From: a virus
Lineage: Duplodnaviria > Caudoviricetes
Length of the DNA: 64,000 nt
Reading direction: 5' to 3' (one strand)
IMG/VR virus record: IMGVR_UViG_2974518997_000001
Location: 33,758 to 97,757 of that record
Shown one piece after another: positions 10,313 through 59,873 of this stretch (position 1 is its first letter; every line of letters begins with the position of its first letter). The translations under genes and the position numbers were made by a program. A model generated the notes under the pieces. It had not been told where the DNA came from. It was given only the letters and a program-made list of their open reading frames with translations, and searched no databases.

Positions 10313-12243
10313 CGTACGAGGGCTACGTAGCATTCGGCGGCAACGAGGTCGTGAACAACGAGCGCGCCCGAGGCTATGCGCAGACGGCTGAGTGCCCGAT
10401 GTTCTGGCTGAAGGACGACCCGGACCAGGGCCTCGCGCCCGCGCTCGGGGACATCCCCTACGTCTACAGCGACATCACGGCGTCGCCCTGGTACGACTCC
10501 ACGATCGACGAGATCAGCCGCCGCTTCTTCGGCGTCTACGGCCTCGAGGTCCGAGGGGTCGAGGACTCCACGCGCACGGCGACGGTGACCGAGTCGATCG
10601 ACGACGGCGGTGTCATCGGCCGCCCTCGCTCGAGCACGCGCAACGTGACGGTGCGAGCCCTGCTCCTCGGCAAGGGCCGCGACGCGATCGAGTACGGCAT
10701 GAGCTGGATGGCGATGCAGCTGGACGCCGACGCGTGCGGCCAGGTCTCTCGGGACTGCGGCGTCGCGACGATGGACGTCTTCTCCACGGCTCCGCCCGTG
10801 CGCGGTGAGGTCCCGGACATCTCGGACTGGCAGATCACCCGCCGGAACCTGCTGACGAATCCTCGCATCATCAGCAGCAACACGGGCTGGACGTCGGCGT
10901 ACTCCTCGAGCGCGACAGCGTCGGGCATGCAGGTGGTCATGGCCGGCGGCCTGGCACCCGAGACGATCATGATGTCCTCCGCTGCGATCGCGACGACTCC
11001 CGGCGAGAACCGCTCGGTCGGCATCACGATCGAGGTGCCCGCGGGCTTCCCGGCGATGACGTTCAGCGTGGTCGCCTTCGCTGAGGGACCCGAGGTCATC
11101 CTCAGCCGCTCCGGCTCTGTGACGATCCAGCCTGGCGAGAGCCGCTACCTCCCGGCCAGTGCGCCGCGCTCGGCTCCCTCGGGCACGACGGCCGTGCGCC
11201 TGCAGGTGCGCGTCGGCGGCACCGAGCCGTCGCCGCTGCTTTCCCGCTTCTACGCGCGCGAGGCGATCATGGCCGACCAGCGCGACCCGGGCGCGTTCTT
11301 CAGCGGCGCGACGCCGAACACCGAGACCGAGCGCTTCACCTGGACCGGCACCGCAAACGCGTCGACCACGACCGAGGAGCGCAAGCTCCCGATCCTCCGG
11401 CCGCGGACGGACGCCGAGTACGGCGAGCTCGTCGACTACGCCCGGCGCTTCATGCGCAACTCCGCGGTGATCAGCGGCCCGCTCAAGCTCACCGAGCAGG
11501 CCTCGGGAGACTTCTGGGCCTACGAGGTGCAGTTCGTGCTGGCCGGCGGGCCGTCGATCCTCGGTGTGACGAAGTCGATCGCGCTGTCTCCGTCGACGCC
11601 GACCGTGGTGCAGGACATCGTCTACAACCTGATCCCGTACACGAACGCCGTCCTCGGCTCGGGCAGCATCGTGATCGCGACGAACCTCGCGCAGAACCCG
11701 AGCGTGGAGACGAACGCGACGGGCTGGTCGATCTCGAACAGCGTCATCTCCGGCTCGTCGCCGACGGCGTTCCTCACGGGCGCGCGCAGCACCGACGTGG
11801 CGGCGATCGGAACCGCGAGCTTCCGCGTGCGACTGCTCGGCGACAACGGCGCGACGGTGGTCTCCGCCTCGGTCTGCGACATGATCGGATACCAGGACGT
11901 GCCGATCCCGGCAGGCGTCGGTCGTCGCGTGTCTCTCAGCCTCTGGGGCGCGGTCTTCGCCAGCGCTGGTGCGACGCCGAACACTGCTCTGCAGAGCCTC
12001 AACGCGCGCTACCTGTTCCTGAACAACGGGGCCGCGGTCGGCGGCACGACGGTCTTCGGAACCACGCCGACCGACGAGTTCGGCGGCAAGGTGCACTCGC
12101 TGATCGGCCTGACCGTGCCTGACTCCGCGACCCACATTCGAGTGAGCCTGGCTGCTCGAGTGACCTGGACGTCGTCCGCCGCAGCTGGCCAGAACAGTGA
12201 CATCCGTCTGTACGGGGACGCGCTGATGGTGAGTGTGCCGTGA
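10309..12243 (+). CDS. Minor tail protein (Dit position) with carbohydrate-binding-like inserts
   Basis: First gene after TMP; RRNLLTNP and NLAQNPSVE motifs. Confidence 0.8.
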   Translation: MTYEGYVAFGGNEVVNNERARGYAQTAECPMFWLKDDPDQGLAPALGDIPYVYSDITASPWYDSTIDEISRRFFGVYGLEVRGVEDSTRTATVTESIDDGGVIGRPRSSTRNVTVRALLLGKGRDAIEYGMSWMAMQLDADACGQVSRDCGVATMDVFSTAPPVRGEVPDISDWQITRRNLLTNPRIISSNTGWTSAYSSSATASGMQVVMAGGLAPETIMMSSAAIATTPGENRSVGITIEVPAGFPAMTFSVVAFAEGPEVILSRSGSVTIQPGESRYLPASAPRSAPSGTTAVRLQVRVGGTEPSPLLSRFYAREAIMADQRDPGAFFSGATPNTETERFTWTGTANASTTTEERKLPILRPRTDAEYGELVDYARRFMRNSAVISGPLKLTEQASGDFWAYEVQFVLAGGPSILGVTKSIALSPSTPTVVQDIVYNLIPYTNAVLGSGSIVIATNLAQNPSVETNATGWSISNSVISGSSPTAFLTGARSTDVAAIGTASFRVRLLGDNGATVVSASVCDMIGYQDVPIPAGVGRRVSLSLWGAVFASAGATPNTALQSLNARYLFLNNGAAVGGTTVFGTTPTDEFGGKVHSLIGLTVPDSATHIRVSLAARVTWTSSAAAGQNSDIRLYGDALMVSVP

Positions 12244-36794: not shown

Positions 36795-38030
36795 GTGAGC
36801 AACCCGAACCCAGATTTCTGGCTGACAACGGCCACGGGCGAGTCGAACCAGATCACTTACTACCAGGAGCGAACCGCCAAGCTGCAGAAGAGCCTCCGGC
36901 GCAGTCGGTGGCTGGACGTGCTCCTCGGCGCGGGAGTGCTCACGAACGCCTACTTCGCGCTCAAGGGCTTCACCTGGGATCTGAACCTCGTCATGGCCCC
37001 GATCCACGTCGGCATCATGGCAGGCGCGGGCTTCGGACTCGGGTGGCTCCAGCCGCGAACTCGGCGGAGCATGCGGGAGTCGATCGAGAACTACAAGAAG
37101 CCGATCGAGGAGGCTGCGCACCGCGCGGTGACCGCGATGCAGAAGTACGAGCTGACGAGCTGGCAGAAGGAGTTCGACGCTCTGCTCCCGAAGCCGGACA
37201 ACCGCACGGCCGAGCAGATCCTGTACGGCACCGCGGCGTCGATGGGACTGCACGCGGAGAAGGAGATCGCCTTCCGCATGGCGGTCGACCAAGCTCGCCG
37301 TGAGGCGCGCATGATGCAGGCTGAGGCGCGGGCCACCCTCGAGGAGCAGACTCGCGCCGCTCAGGCGGAAAAGGATCGCCGCGAGAAGCTAGAGCGCGAC
37401 CTGGAGGCGGCGCGAATCCGCGATGAGGAGCGCGAGCGTCGGCGGCAGAGCAAGAAGGTGCACGACTTCACCGACTGGCAGGGCGACCAAGATCCCCGGC
37501 GCGTCTGGGCGGATGACATCTGCCTCGCGTGCGACGAGCCCTTCGGGACAGCGAACTACCACGTGCATTTCGACGAGATGGGCCGGATGGTGAGGACCAC
37601 GCCGGTGCGACTCGGACCCGGCCAGACGCCGGCGACGAACTACAAGCTCCTCGAGGAGGAGATGGCCGAGCTTGCGGAGCAGAGCAGGAACGTCCCGGAG
37701 CTGGTGGAGGCGCGGAGGCGCAACAAGGAGATGCTCGACAATCTCATCGCGCAGGGCGTGGACCTGAACGCGGTAGCCGACAGCCTGCAGAAGGCGCTCA
37801 CCAGCGTGCGGGACTCCAACGCCCGGAAGGAAGAGGTTCTCGAGGTGCTCACCGTCCTCGAGAACCAATCCGACCGGGAGACCGCTGCCAAGGTGTTCAC
37901 GGAGCTGAATGCCCCGAAGCAACAGCAGATGCCGATCCGGTGCACGGAGTGCGGCCAGTACGTCGCGAAGGGCGGCTGGTCGAAGCACAATCACGGCCGC
38001 GAGAAGGGCGAGTTCCAGGTCACAGCGTGA
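36795..38030 (+). CDS. Membrane-anchored coiled-coil protein with Zn-finger-like motifs
   Basis: Two N-terminal TM segments; CxxC...H motifs; GAGGAG RBS. Confidence 0.7.
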   Translation: MSNPNPDFWLTTATGESNQITYYQERTAKLQKSLRRSRWLDVLLGAGVLTNAYFALKGFTWDLNLVMAPIHVGIMAGAGFGLGWLQPRTRRSMRESIENYKKPIEEAAHRAVTAMQKYELTSWQKEFDALLPKPDNRTAEQILYGTAASMGLHAEKEIAFRMAVDQARREARMMQAEARATLEEQTRAAQAEKDRREKLERDLEAARIRDEERERRRQSKKVHDFTDWQGDQDPRRVWADDICLACDEPFGTANYHVHFDEMGRMVRTTPVRLGPGQTPATNYKLLEEEMAELAEQSRNVPELVEARRRNKEMLDNLIAQGVDLNAVADSLQKALTSVRDSNARKEEVLEVLTVLENQSDRETAAKVFTELNAPKQQQMPIRCTECGQYVAKGGWSKHNHGREKGEFQVTA

Positions 38031-48590: not shown

Positions 48591-48850
48591 ACGACAAGGA
48601 GTCGTTCGAGAAGATGATCCTCGAGGCGATCGTCAGTGACGGCGATCTGACGACGATCGGCGCTGAGAACGGCGTGGAGATCGATGGACACGGTCCTCAG
48701 GAGGGCAACAGCACTCCGATCGAGGGCTACTACCGCTTCAACGGCCGCCGAGCGTATTTCGCCGGGAAGGTCACGGTGGAGCTCGAGACTTTCGAGCACG
48801 CAGACGACGATGATGACCTCGACGATGACGAAGGAGACGAAGAGGAATGA
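48587..48850 (+). CDS. Acidic hypothetical protein
   Basis: ATGA overlap. Confidence 0.65.
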   Translation: MNDKESFEKMILEAIVSDGDLTTIGAENGVEIDGHGPQEGNSTPIEGYYRFNGRRAYFAGKVTVELETFEHADDDDDLDDDEGDEEE

Positions 48851-50091
48851 GCGACAACCAGTACCCGGTGACCCTGCGGGGCACGGGCGCACCTGTCCTG
48901 ATGTGGGCGCAGGAGCACGAAGTCGAGTCCAGCGCTCTGCAGCAGCTGCGCAACGTCAGCCAGCTTCCCGGCCTCCACGGCCTCCGCGTGATGCCTGACG
49001 TCCACTGGGGCAACGGCGCGACCGTCGGCTCCGTCATCGCGATGGAGCAGGCGCTCGCACCCGCGGCCGTCGGCGTGGACATCGGCTGCGGCGTGAACGC
49101 GGTGCGCACGAACCTCACCCTCGAGGACGTGGACGATCGCGACCTGCACGCGCTTCGCATGCGCTGGCAGAAGGTTGTGCCGGTCGGCTTCGCCTCGCAC
49201 CAGCAGGCCGGACGCCAGCTGAAGGTGCTGAACCCGATCGAGCGGAAGCGCTACGAGTCGTTCCTGAACAGCGTCGACACGCTCAAGGCCGACCTCTCGG
49301 AGAAGAAGCACAGCGACGCAGACGTGCGCGGCCGGGCGGCTCACCAGCTGGGCTCCCTGGGTGGCGGGAACCACTTCATCGAGCTGACCTCGGATGCGAC
49401 CGGCCAGCTGTGGATCACCCTCCACTCCGGCTCGCGGAACATCGGCAAGAGCCTCGCGGAGCGCCACATCGGCATCGCCATGGCGGATCCGCGCAACGAG
49501 GAGCTGCCGAAGCACCTCAAGGAGCTGAGCCTGTTCTACAAGGGCACTCCGCAGATGGACGCCTACCTGCACGACCTGAAGTGGGCGCAGAAGTTCGCGA
49601 TGCTCTCGCGCACGCTGATGACGGAGACGGTGAAGGCCGAGCTCGCTCTGTACTTCGACGGCCGCGGCAAGATCACGACCTTCGACGAGGAGATCAACTG
49701 CCACCACAACTACGTGGCGGAGGAGGAGATCGACGGCAAGATGATGATCGTCACCCGCAAGGGCGCGATCAGCGCGAAGAAGGGTGAGCTGGCGCTCATC
49801 CCCGGCTCCATGGCGACCGGTTCGTACATCGTGCGCGGCCTCGGCAACGAGGCGTCGTTCCAGAGCGCGTCCCACGGCGCGGGACGGAAGATGAGCCGCG
49901 GCGAGGCGAAGCGTCGGTTCACAGTCGAGGACGTGGAGCGCACCATGGTCGGCATCGAGGCTCGGAAGGACGAGGGCGTGATCGACGAGATCTCGCTCGC
50001 GTACAAGAACCTCGATGAGGTCATCGTGGCGGAGAAGGACCTGGTCGAGGTCGTTCAGAAGCTCGACACGATCCTCTGCGTGAAGGGCTGA
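48847..50091 (+). CDS. rtcB: RtcB RNA ligase
   Basis: MPDVH.G.G; GVDIGCG; LGSLGGGNHFIE; HSGSR; HHNY; RKGA; PGSM; SHGAGR. Confidence 0.97.
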   Translation: MSDNQYPVTLRGTGAPVLMWAQEHEVESSALQQLRNVSQLPGLHGLRVMPDVHWGNGATVGSVIAMEQALAPAAVGVDIGCGVNAVRTNLTLEDVDDRDLHALRMRWQKVVPVGFASHQQAGRQLKVLNPIERKRYESFLNSVDTLKADLSEKKHSDADVRGRAAHQLGSLGGGNHFIELTSDATGQLWITLHSGSRNIGKSLAERHIGIAMADPRNEELPKHLKELSLFYKGTPQMDAYLHDLKWAQKFAMLSRTLMTETVKAELALYFDGRGKITTFDEEINCHHNYVAEEEIDGKMMIVTRKGAISAKKGELALIPGSMATGSYIVRGLGNEASFQSASHGAGRKMSRGEAKRRFTVEDVERTMVGIEARKDEGVIDEISLAYKNLDEVIVAEKDLVEVVQKLDTILCVKG

Positions 50092-50093
50092 TC

Positions 50094-50504
50094 ATGGTCC
50101 TGGAACGCACAGCGACAGAGCATCGCGAGCGCCTGGAGCGCATCGTCGGATCGATCGCCCTCGGGATGAACTGCGAGATCAAGCTCGCGTTCAGCGAGGA
50201 CCGCGGCGAGTGGTTCGTGCAGATTCAGTGCTGGCGTCTGGACGTCATCACGAAGAAGTACGGCTGGGGATTTGGAGGCAAGGGCTGGCCTAGCATCCAC
50301 TCCTCGGACAGCGAGATCATCCAGATGATCTTCGGCCTGTACAAGGGCTACTGGGAGCACGAGGCTCGCGAGACGTTCGAGCTCCGCAACGAGGCCGGCG
50401 AGTATCGTCGACCCTTCGGACCTCACATCGACACCTGGGCGCTATGGAGCGTCGCACGGAAGGTCGACGTGCGGTCACAGCGACACGAGGAGGACCGGAA
50501 GTGA
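50094..50504 (+). CDS. Hypothetical protein
   Basis: EHEARE.F...FGPH motif. Confidence 0.7.
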   Translation: MVLERTATEHRERLERIVGSIALGMNCEIKLAFSEDRGEWFVQIQCWRLDVITKKYGWGFGGKGWPSIHSSDSEIIQMIFGLYKGYWEHEARETFELRNEAGEYRRPFGPHIDTWALWSVARKVDVRSQRHEEDRK

Positions 50505-58344: not shown

Positions 58345-58543
58345 CGCAGAACAAATCGTCGGTCGCCTCGAGCGGCCAGCGCGCACAGAACTTCTCGCAT
58401 GGGAGTCGGGTGATGATCGGTCCCGACCGGGTAGCTCCGGAAGAATGCAGGTTCGGCTCGGCGTCCTAGGCCCGGTCGCACCGAAGGATTGGTCTCCTCT
58501 GAACGACCCGGTGCCGGCACCCTGATAATGGAGCTGGCGCTGT

Positions 58544-58616
58544 TCCGAGATAGCTCAGCTGGCAGAGCTCGCGATTGTTAATCGCGCGGTCGGTGGTTCG
58601 ATCCCACCTCTCGGAG
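58544..58616 (+). tRNA. tRNA-Asn (GTT)
   Basis: Full cloverleaf; CGCGA-TTGTTAA-TCGCG anticodon arm; CCA not encoded. Confidence 0.92.
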
Positions 58617-58680
58617 CGCGGAGTGGTCGGGGAGTATGTGTCAGACGTGGCATGTGCGGTGATCCGGCCACCTCTGCCGG

Positions 58681-58752
58681 TCCCCGCTGGCGTAATGGCA
58701 TCGCGTCTGATTCTGGATCAGAAGACTCCTGGTTCGACCCCAGGGTGGGGAG
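58681..58752 (+). tRNA. tRNA-Gln (CTG)
   Basis: TCTGA-TTCTGGA-TCAGA arm; CCTGG-TTCGACC-CCAGG T arm. Confidence 0.88.
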
Positions 58753-58884
58753 CAAGTGCTGAGACTGCGCACCCGGTTGCTTGGAGCGACTGCGCACAGC
58801 ATGAGAAGGTGGACTTCCTCTCGTCGACTTCAAGCGGCGTGAGGGACAGATCTTCGGCCGCCGTGGCCCTTCCTCGGCGGTTCT

Positions 58885-58957
58885 GGGTTGCTAGCTCAAT
58901 TGGCAGAGCGCCGGTCTCCAAAACCGGAGGTTCGAGGTTCGATCCCTCGGCGGCCCG
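58885..58957 (+). tRNA. tRNA-Trp (CCA)
   Basis: CCGGT-CTCCAAA-ACCGG arm; canonical D and T arms. Confidence 0.92.
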
Positions 58958-58958
58958 C

Positions 58959-58994
58959 GGTTGCAGGTTCGAGTCCTGCCGGGTTCCTGACCCG
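58959..58994 (+). ncRNA. Orphan tRNA T-arm followed by a closed hairpin
   Basis: GCAGG-TTCGAGT-CCTGC then CGGGT-TCCTG-ACCCG. Confidence 0.55.
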
Positions 58995-59128
58995 TACATC
59001 AAAGTCCTGGGCACCATACCTGGCCGTGGACGTGGTAGAAGAGCGACAGGCGCTCCACCGGTGAAGGCCCGGGTACGTTCGAGGATCTTCCATCATTCGC
59101 GTGGTGGTCGCGGGATCTTCGGGCGTGC

Positions 59129-59288
59129 GGGACGGTAGCTCAGTTGGCAGAGCAGCGGCAGGATCCGCCCGATGGCGGCAGAACACACTCGGTACTCGGG
59201 AGGTCTAGGCCAGGCCTAGGATCGGGGAGAAGAGACTGCACAGTCGGGAAGCGTCCGCAGGTCGGGTGTTCAAATCACCCCCGTTCCA
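59129..59288 (+). ncRNA. tRNA-shaped RNA with Ala identity and a ~95-nt insert replacing the anticodon loop
   Basis: GGGACGG/CCGTTCC-A acceptor (G3.U70); complete D arm; GGGTG-TTCAAAT-CACCC T arm. Confidence 0.75.
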
Positions 59289-59307
59289 CGCCATAATCGA
59301 ATAGCAC

Positions 59308-59380
59308 GGCTCCGTAGCTCAGTTGGTAGAGCGCTCGATTGAAAATCGAGAGGTCCCTGGTTCAAGCCCAGGCGTTGCCA
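59308..59380 (+). tRNA. tRNA-Phe (GAA) with two acceptor-stem mismatches
   Basis: CTCGA-TTGAAAA-TCGAG arm; acceptor GGCTCCG/CGTTGCC. Confidence 0.8.
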
Positions 59381-59495
59381 CAGGCGTCACGAAGTAACGG
59401 CGTCACCACGGCTTGCTCAAGGGACTCCTGGCTTGAGAGCGTAGCCGGCTGACAGACGACTACTCACGACCCTGGCGCGCGGCCGATAAACGCAG

Positions 59496-59531
59496 AGAGG
59501 CTCCACCTGTGCCACACAGGTGGAGCCTTTT
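59496..59531 (+). terminator. Rho-independent terminator ending the RNA locus
   Basis: AGGCTCCACCTGTG-CCA-CACAGGTGGAGCCT-TTT. Confidence 0.85.
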
Positions 59532-59559
59532 GCATGCCCTTCGTCAACGGGCCAGCTAG

Positions 59560-59586
59560 CGTAGTACGCCCCTACCGTAGTACGCT
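59560..59586 (+). promoter_or_regulatory. Two CGTAGTACGC copies; the second supplies -10 TACGCT for a likely leaderless mRNA
   Basis: Same 10-mer as at 5790; ATG 8 nt downstream; no SD sequence. Confidence 0.5.
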
Positions 59587-59594
59587 CCCTAGTT

Positions 59595-59873
59595 ATGGTC
59601 GATCCTCTCCCCACGCCGGGCCTCCCGTGCCCCGAGTGCCGAGAGCGACTCCTTCGCGACGGCCGCGACATCGAGGGCATGAACCGCATCGGCAACCGCC
59701 GCGGAACGTGCACCACGTGCAACAACTTCAACCAGGCGGTCATGCGCCTCACGCGCGCTCGGCTGAAGGAGATGCACGAAGAGGAATATGAGCGTCTGCG
59801 CGTCCGCGTGGAGATGGACCTCTACCCCGGGGTCATCGAGAAGTGGAACGTCACGCACGGACTGGTGACCTGA
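59595..59873 (+). CDS. Zn-finger hypothetical protein
   Basis: CPEC...CTTC. Confidence 0.7.
   Translation: MVDPLPTPGLPCPECRERLLRDGRDIEGMNRIGNRRGTCTTCNNFNQAVMRLTRARLKEMHEEEYERLRVRVEMDLYPGVIEKWNVTHGLVT

Follow-up and report, generated by a model that had tools for sequence, protein, structure and literature searches.

We describe here a tRNA-like RNA gene of 160 nucleotides (nt) that lies at positions 59129 to 59288 of a 64-kb stretch of phage DNA (the window) and that combines a complete tRNA body with a 96-nt structured insert where the anticodon loop would be expected. The window covers the right-hand 64 kb of the complete genome of a Rogerhendrixvirus-like Microbacterium phage, and the element sits there within an operon of tRNA genes. 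Since four homologues of the element show compensatory evolution, it is more than a chance resemblance and, judged from these alignments, is a real gene family under selection, beyond chance or decay. It appears to be a small, previously undescribed family of phage tRNA look-alikes, for which canonical decoding would be excluded without a usable anticodon loop. We tentatively read the element as an unspliced, non-decoding mimic of tRNA-Ala that may take part in an arms race of tRNA cleavage and repair, and we give this reading a probability of roughly 35%.

The body of the element, encoded on the plus strand, follows the plan of a tRNA on both sides of the insert. The 5' strand of the acceptor stem (GGGACGG, 59129 to 59135), which includes G3 of a G3.U70 wobble pair, is followed by U8 and A9, by a D arm (GCTC-AGTTGGCA-GAGC, 59138 to 59153) with A14, G15, G18, G19, and A21, and by A26. 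A 4-bp remnant of the anticodon stem (referred to as H1) is formed by GCGG at 59155 to 59158 and CCGC at 59255 to 59258. On its 3' side lie the variable loop AGGTC and the T arm GGGTG-TTCAAAT-CACCC (together 59259 to 59280, with the arm at 59264 to 59280), followed by the 3' acceptor strand CCGTTCC (59281 to 59287, with U70 at 59283) and the discriminator base A73 at 59288. The nucleotides that form the tertiary core of tRNA are all present (U8, A14, G15-C48, G18 G19, A21, G46, G53-C61, and T54-A58), and CCA is not encoded, as is also the case for the neighboring phage tRNAs. Compared with the tRNA family of Rfam (RF00005), the element has the acceptor, D, and T arms and the tertiary nucleotides but lacks the 5-bp anticodon stem and the 7-nt loop with U33 and a purine at position 37; instead of the expected 9 nt, 96 nt separate the strands of its 4-bp stem (24 to 96 nt in the family). 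The first-pass annotation, made by a model from the letters of this DNA, had described these stems and arms, G3.U70 and A73, three local hairpins in the insert (CCGCC/GGCGG, CTAGGC/GCCTAG, and GACT/AGTC), and an open reading frame (ORF) of 15 codons inside it (59172 to 59219, MAAEHTRYSGGLGQA*). All of these were found where it had placed them, and the anticodon loop that it had called missing is indeed replaced by the insert. The unconstrained minimum-energy fold of the 160 nt is a cloverleaf with a long, irregular hairpin in the place of the anticodon loop. The folding energy itself is unremarkable (z = -0.67), z-scores being uninformative for a sequence as GC-rich as this one.

Standard detectors pass over the element. 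With default settings, ARAGORN called only tRNA-Asn, tRNA-Gln, tRNA-Trp, and tRNA-Phe, and neither a tRNA-Ala nor a transfer-messenger RNA (tmRNA), whether it was run on the window or on the full phage genome of 97.8 kb. The Rfam models, including those for tRNA, tmRNA, and YrlA that the first-pass annotation had recommended, did not match the element at gathering thresholds or with the limit relaxed to E <= 10; the one exception, a spurious 20-bit YrlA match, joins the T arm of the element to the D arm of the next tRNA. We built a covariance model, R1, from the window copy and its homologue in the phage Rasputia, which is unannotated in the deposited genome. Further relatives were located via neighboring proteins in Logan, ENA, and JGI assemblies and then scanned with R1. 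This yielded five distinct members with lengths of 87 to 160 nt, namely, the window copy, the Rasputia copy, which sits between tRNA-Trp and tRNA-Tyr, and copies in three uncultured relatives: L124 (18934-19056, 85 bits with R1), L131 (4225-4348, 71 bits; the same copy is found in L132 and L136), and L139 (11637-11723, 81 bits). The Rfam tRNA model scores the L124 and L131 copies at 51 to 52 bits with a large insertion. Pattern scans retrieved no further true homologue from IMG/VR (14 matches from one scan were due to chance and lay inside unrelated sequence), from JGI metagenomes (the single match, L120, is unrelated AT-rich DNA), or from the GTDB species genomes, and blastn added none from 50,697 phage records. 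Likewise, R1 matched only ordinary ∼75-nt tRNAs in 151 Microbacterium genomes. Searching for related loci with two neighboring proteins gave none, and the same search with DUF932 gave one contig, too short to reach the operon. We found no Rfam family, no GenBank annotation, and, among the papers searched, no publication that describes this RNA.

In the alignment of the five sequences, 99.1% of the pair cells are standard pairs, and compensatory double changes occur in 11 of the 23 pairs: 6 of 7 in the acceptor stem, 2 of 4 in H1 (GCGA/TCGC in Rasputia and TCGG/CCGA in L139), and 3 of 5 in the T stem. The D stem is invariant in all members. None of 500 shuffles reached the observed values for pairing and covariation, and pairing fell to 40 to 56% in controls with slid partners. 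The alignment was fitted to the model structure, which favors pairing, but the compensatory changes are still plain in the raw sequences. These data bear on the idea that the element is a decaying pseudogene, that is, a phage tRNA gene broken by an insertion in its anticodon loop and carried along passively. The close relatives Leaf, Dewdrop, and L123 do lack the element, the sequence of the insert is unconserved, and default detectors call nothing, all of which such decay would explain. However, not one disruptive change is seen among the 23 pairs of these five diverged copies, the junction at the base of the insert is conserved, and in the L131 operon the element is the sole RNA gene kept. 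Given the compensatory changes and this retention, we consider passive decay very improbable, and the covariation leaves the idea close to refuted. The first-pass annotation had proposed collecting homologues for a covariation test and had held that absence from relatives or loss of G3.U70 would count against a functional RNA. Both do occur, in Leaf and L123 for the former and in L131 for the latter, whereas the covariation across four homologues speaks for function.

G3.U70 together with A73 is the anticodon-independent determinant recognized by alanyl-tRNA synthetase (AlaRS) and is also found in tmRNA. A73 is present in all five members and G3.U70 in four of them (window, Rasputia, L124, and L139). 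Among these, acceptor pairs 4 to 6 swap to other Watson-Crick pairs while G3.U70 stays (GGGACGG/CCGTTCC versus GGGGAAG/CTTCTCC), as would be expected of selection acting on the wobble pair itself. The marks of alanine identity that the first-pass annotation had read from the window copy are thereby extended to most of the family. The exception is L131, whose acceptor stem (TCCGAAG/CTTCGGA) has C3-G70 and keeps A73. By its likeness under R1, the body of the element nevertheless looks derived from tRNA-Trp: the best matches of the model outside the family are tRNA-Trp genes, with 54 to 56 bits for the phage copies, and host tRNAs of ∼75 nt score ∼61 bits in 148 of the 151 Microbacterium genomes, the one that we inspected being a tRNA-Trp. 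tRNA-Trp carries G73, in contrast to the A73 of the element.

The alanine-type element is closely linked with RtcB, an RNA ligase for 3'-phosphate and 5'-OH ends. In the window, rtcB (48847 to 50091, plus strand; Pfam RtcB, 376 bits) lies 9 kb upstream of the element, and all four carriers of G3.U70 encode RtcB at the same genomic position. It is absent from the whole Leaf genome and from the syntenic site in L123, L137, and L136, the last being the contig of L131; in total, five related genomes lack RtcB at this site. Leaf, L123, and L137 also have no element, and L136 has the copy without G3.U70. Of the ORFs at window positions 38000 to 64000, only rtcB is shared with Rasputia, L124, and L139 but missing in Leaf, L123, and L137. 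A tree of DUF932 interleaves carriers and noncarriers in the sister pairs window/L123, Rasputia/Leaf, and L139/L136. In each of these three contrasts, the alanine-type element and RtcB differ jointly despite the 9 kb between them; this association draws on one gene tree and nine mosaic genomes, of which the Logan and ENA contigs are seen over about 20 kb. The dependence is one-sided, since four other Microbacterium phages with RtcB (Honk, Count, Floof, and Cece) have no match to R1. The occurrence of the G3.U70-type element only together with RtcB in this phage group suggests a role in tRNA damage, repair, or splicing. Because of this shared distribution, two other options raised in the first-pass annotation, a decoy or alanine-charged mimic and a pre-tRNA spliced by means of RtcB, both gain in plausibility.

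The phage RtcB is 88% identical to the chromosomal RtcB of a Microbacterium species (L020:2740-4227), which lies among ordinary host genes (VIT1, VTC, and peptidase M20) and adjoins a tRNA. This suggests a recent transfer of RtcB between host and phage. We also considered the ORF beside rtcB (50094 to 50504) as a specific partner and rejected it, as it encodes a common Microbacterium-phage protein that is also found in L123, where neither the element nor a syntenic RtcB is present.

Within the insert, conservation is confined to its base. The strand that leaves H1 opens with an internal loop, CAGGATC at 59159 to 59165, which is identical or nearly identical in all five members (CAGGATC or CAGGGCC, consensus CAGGRYC). 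It is followed by a 3-bp helix, H2, in which CGC (59166 to 59168) pairs with GCG (59251 to 59253); H2 is paired in four members, while L139 has CAC opposite an unchanged GCG. Then comes the variable hairpin (59169 to 59247), whose first helix, H3, pairs CCGA (59169 to 59172) with TCGG (59244 to 59247) and covaries in the family (CCGA/TCGG, CTCGTG/CACGAG, TCC/GGA, and CGG/CCG in four members). The returning strand has a small 3' bulge, GAA at 59248 to 59250 (GAA, GA, GT, GT, and GC in the five members, i.e., G-N or G-A-A), and then the invariant GCG followed by U, or by A in two members (59251 to 59254). Distal to H3 nothing is conserved in length or sequence, and the spacing between the H1 strands is 96, 56, 59, 61, and 24 nt, from 96 nt in the window to 24 nt in L139. 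From this comparison, the conserved part of the arm is the junction and not the payload. The complementarity of the insert to the phage genome and to 61 host genomes was at chance level, and we dropped an antisense or guide role for it. By visual comparison, the junction fits neither kink-turn nor Ire1-type loop motifs. A group I intron was rejected as well, given an insert of 24 to 96 nt versus a core of about 200 nt or more and no match to an intron model in Rfam.

The variability of the insert also decides the fate of a further suggestion in the first-pass annotation, namely, that the element is a miniature tmRNA, an alanine-charged RNA that would tag the products of stalled ribosomes with AEHTRYSGGLGQA. 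The suggestion could draw on G3.U70 and A73, as in tmRNA, and on the short ORF of the window member. Since this ORF exists only in the window phage, the comparative data refute the idea: the ORF is missing from all four homologues, the inserts of three of these are free of stop codons in every frame, and there is accordingly no codon-level conservation, by which the proposal was to be judged. Moreover, the D stem is complete, pseudoknots are lacking, an insert can be as short as that of L139, the tmRNA models and ARAGORN return nothing, and the phage has no SmpB. We regard the chance that the element is a tmRNA as negligible.

The last base of the 3' bulge and the first two bases of the invariant GCG form a triplet next to the 3' strand of the stem that reads AGC in the window and AGC, UGC, UGC, and CGC in the relatives, all of which are alanine anticodons. 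Its first base varies (A, A, U, U, and C); G35 and C36 never change, not even in L139, in which the H2 partner has mutated. The junction has the topology of a bulge-helix-bulge (BHB), with a 5' loop of 6 to 7 nt, 3 bp plus one mismatch, and a 3' bulge of 2 to 3 nt; a true BHB is bulge(3)-helix(4)-bulge(3). A hypothetical cut after the CA of the 5' loop and before N34 would leave a 7-nt loop, C-A-NGC-G-W, in every member. These features raise the possibility that the element is an interrupted tRNA-Ala, with the variable hairpin as an intron just 5' of the anticodon (positions 33/34). The junction would be cut by an endonuclease, probably of the host, leaving 2',3'-cyclic phosphate and 5'-OH ends; RtcB would join the exons, and the product would be an alanine tRNA of ∼71 nt with the loop just given.

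Such splicing would explain why, in each of the five members, acceptor marks of alanine identity go along with an in-register alanine anticodon (A73 in five and G3.U70 in four), why only the wobble base of the triplet varies, why one and the same cut gives a 7-nt loop throughout, and why the insert is as free to vary in length and sequence as introns are. It would also agree with the constant company of G3.U70 and RtcB, the sole member without syntenic RtcB being the one that lost G3.U70. The phage encodes no other tRNA-Ala by ARAGORN on the whole genome, and it has the RtcB-type ligase that is expected for BHB introns. A ligase of its own would benefit the phage, RtcB being found in only 28 of the 101 Microbacterium genomes searched. 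Small introns that are not of group I have been recorded in the tRNAs of Lak megaphages (PMC6784885).

The predicted products, however, are all noncanonical and would violate three nearly universal rules of anticodon arms. No excision gives U33 in any of the five members, which have A33 or G33 instead, and position 37 is G; the anticodon stem has four pairs, and counting a fifth would mean accepting an A.A mismatch and giving up nucleotide 26. U33 is nearly universal in tRNA, and tRNA-Ala carries A37. The excisions were listed exhaustively, as single excisions, for the window and Rasputia copies and were checked by eye in the other three sequences. A functional anticodon arm is not restored by any of them, the best product being the C-A-NGC-G-W loop on a 4-bp stem. 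In its intron mode, ARAGORN called the window copy Cys and the Rasputia copy Ala, with Ile and others for further excisions; because the body is a good tRNA, the program accepts nearly any excision, and we gave these inconsistent isotypes no weight. No EndA-type endonuclease was found in the phage (PF01974, E <= 1; host genomes were not searched for it), nor does any nuclease gene in the compared regions show a matching phyletic pattern. The 5' loop is longer than the 3 nt of a true BHB, and L131, with the element and without syntenic RtcB, would have to count as a dying or reused copy. On balance, we consider splicing the main rival, only slightly less probable than the reading that follows.

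We slightly prefer the unspliced tRNA-Ala mimic. The RNA would be transcribed within the phage tRNA operon and, as can be expected given its complete tRNA core, released by RNase P, 3' processing, and CCA-adding enzymes like the neighboring tRNAs. It would then fold into an L shape and could be charged via G3.U70 and A73 by the AlaRS of the host, which ignores the anticodon. Decoding would not take place, the anticodon loop being replaced by a helix that starts with the asymmetric loop CAGGRYC, and the CGC/GCG helix would sequester the alanine-type NGC triplet beside the small bulge. The conserved base of the arm would be the working site, and the distal hairpin of 24 to 96 nt would serve only as a variable clamp. 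We place the element in a contest of tRNA cleavage and repair because it occurs only with RtcB in this phage group: by resembling tRNA-Ala, it may act as a decoy for, or compete for, a host factor that reads or attacks this tRNA, while RtcB would seal cut RNAs again. That no excision gives a canonical anticodon arm, and that the distal arm is free while its base is conserved, supports an unspliced RNA. By analogy, this would fit a locus with a history of Y-RNA-type tRNA mimics (see below) and of a tRNA arms race. In actinobacteria, the Mycobacterium tuberculosis toxin VapC-mt4 cleaves the anticodon loop of tRNA-Ala, leaving 5'-OH ends (PMC4705866), and phage tRNAs have been proposed as a counter to host tRNases (PMC10264068).

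Nothing that we found contradicts this mimic outright; several points nevertheless weigh against it. The acceptor identity marks are not obviously needed by a decoy. L131 (L136) has neither G3.U70 nor RtcB at the syntenic site and keeps all else, so that either alanine identity is dispensable or this copy has changed its function. The register of the alanine triplet, the BHB-like junction, and the RtcB link are all left as coincidence, while splicing accounts for the three directly; for the mimic, the link would have to come from a shared selective pressure. The family is also small, with five sequences from one phage group, and we know of no nuclease directed at tRNA-Ala in Microbacterium. 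The probability left over from the readings discussed here belongs to something not yet conceived. A downstream GNAT protein, which we considered as an aminoacyl transferase, was discarded as an ordinary member of the acetyltransferase family that is not of the FemAB type.

The operon around the element (58544 to 59381, plus strand) comprises tRNA-Asn (58544 to 58617), tRNA-Gln (58681 to 58753), tRNA-Trp (58885 to 58958), the element, and tRNA-Phe (59308 to 59381). It ends with a terminator, a hairpin followed by a U run, at about 59499 to 59531, and no terminator was found between its tRNAs and the element. The leader (∼58345 to 58540) and the trailer (∼59381 to 59500) of the operon are conserved: blocks of 25 to 45 nt show little or no change among the window, Rasputia, Leaf, and uncultured relatives. 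They have no match in Rfam and exceed the intervening tRNA genes in conservation. Just upstream of the glycosyltransferase operon that follows, at ∼59550 to 59595, there are two copies of a near-palindrome, GCGTAGTACGC, conserved in all relatives examined and probably a binding site for a regulator; a related sequence, GCGTGCTACGC, stands ahead of the tRNA operon. In L139, two ORFs with Cys-rich, HNH-like motifs (10740-11090 and 11172-11609) lie between the tRNA genes of the operon, and such mobile endonuclease genes may be one source of its rapid turnover.

The locus is evidently a hot spot for tRNA-derived RNAs. Directly upstream of its family member, L124 has a second, different tRNA-like RNA of 135 nt (L124:18796-18930). 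Its acceptor stem of 6 bp includes G3.U70 and its T arm (ACGGG-TTCAAAT-CCCGT) is perfect; a D stem is lacking, the internal region is long, and the match to R1 is weak (13.8 bits). In the window, a weak match to YrlA (58944 to 59033; 25.6 bits, E = 0.007 in a local search) follows directly after tRNA-Trp; its T arm is good, its acceptor-like hairpin is closed, and its D arm is degenerate. This match looks like the relic of a Y RNA, a reading that we base on the lack of Ro60 in this phage and on the relatives that carry Ro60 together with better YrlA matches at the locus. A gene for Ro60 (TROVE plus vWA_Ro60) is found in L133 (4803-6455), L135 (4787-6451), and L138 (7872-9539), directly downstream of the cluster of tRNAs and tRNA-like RNAs, at the position where the window phage continues straight into the glycosyltransferase operon. 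L133 and L135 have two YrlA-like matches (29 to 36 bits) just upstream of Ro60; L133 and L137 are one relative. Ro60 was found only in relatives without the element.

This neighborhood suggests another explanation, in which the element is a Y-RNA-like docking RNA: the tRNA body would provide processing and stability, the loop, helix, and bulge at the base of the arm would bind a protein, and aminoacylation would be irrelevant. In architecture, the element amounts to a YrlA RNA with relocated ends, the anticodon stem of its tRNA core being extended into a long helix, and the presence of Ro60 and YrlA RNAs at the same locus in relatives, together with the weak relic in the window, agrees with this idea. 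Sites of protein binding typically have a conserved internal loop of this kind, the element persists in L131 although G3.U70 is gone there, and foreign RNA at the anticodon position is known to be stabilized by tRNA scaffolds (PMC3753655). However, neither the phage nor any of the 101 Microbacterium genomes searched yielded a Ro60/TROVE gene, no likeness to the sequence of the YrlA stem was seen, the Rfam scores are far below threshold, and no candidate partner protein shares the phyletic pattern. Docking would also leave unexplained both the link with RtcB and the retention of G3.U70 amid covarying neighbors, and we consider it unlikely. Membership in YrlA in the strict sense (RF02553) was rejected, given the unpermuted topology, an overlapping match of 20 bits against a threshold of 69 bits, and the absence of Ro60.

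Phage tRNA clusters are usually annotated for canonical tRNAs only. The family described here unites a tRNA-Trp-like body bearing alanine marks, a conserved junction with a free-running hairpin, and a tight link with RtcB, three traits that have not previously been seen together. To our knowledge, the natural role of RtcB in bacteria and phages is poorly defined. If the RNA is unspliced, it would represent a new kind of tRNA mimic in the conflict between phage and host, with the laboratory tRNA scaffold as its engineered counterpart. Splicing of an archaeal-style intron, cut by a bacterial or phage endonuclease and with its exons joined by the phage RtcB, would instead point to a protein-dependent route of tRNA splicing in bacteria. 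It would be the first such pathway among bacteria and their phages and would extend the functions of RtcB in both to splicing. The system is experimentally tractable, as Rasputia, which has both a member of the family and RtcB, is a cultured phage of Microbacterium foliorum.

Among known RNAs, the tRNA-like domain of tmRNA shares with the element G3.U70 and A73, the T arm, and a long helix that replaces the anticodon arm. It differs from the element, which has a full D stem, a length of 87 to 160 nt, and no conserved ORF, resume codon, or pseudoknots; the tRNA-like domain of tmRNA has no D stem. YrlA RNAs (RF02553; Chen et al. 2014, PMC4201824) resemble the element in their tRNA-like core and in an anticodon stem that is prolonged into a helix with a conserved site of the protein-binding type, and they occur in actinophages, frequently with RtcB in the same genome or operon. 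However, they are circularly permuted and end in the long helix, with an acceptor that is closed by a loop and offers no chargeable 3' end, whereas the element ends in its acceptor, which carries the alanine marks in four of five members, and has a closed long arm; the Ro-binding stem of YrlA has no sequence match in the element. Archaeal BHB introns, which are ligated by RtcB, and the "enigmatic" introns of Lak phages (PMC6784885) are similar in having a variable insert in the anticodon region, a conserved junction where anticodon bases pair with the insert, and RtcB in the genome. They differ in that the junction of the element is only BHB-like, no EndA accompanies it, its insert lies 5' of the anticodon, and its product would lack U33 and one stem pair. 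RNAC and RNAD of phage T4 (PMC3014915) are likewise stable non-tRNA RNAs in a phage tRNA operon, presumably released by tRNA enzymes and with an unexplained role. They have no sequence relation to the element and come from a phage of another host phylum, and the likeness is one of description. Finally, in engineered tRNA scaffolds (PMC3753655) a hairpin replaces the anticodon stem-loop and the cell processes and stabilizes the RNA, much as we propose for the element; these scaffolds are a laboratory design, while in the element the payload is unconserved and it is the junction that is conserved.

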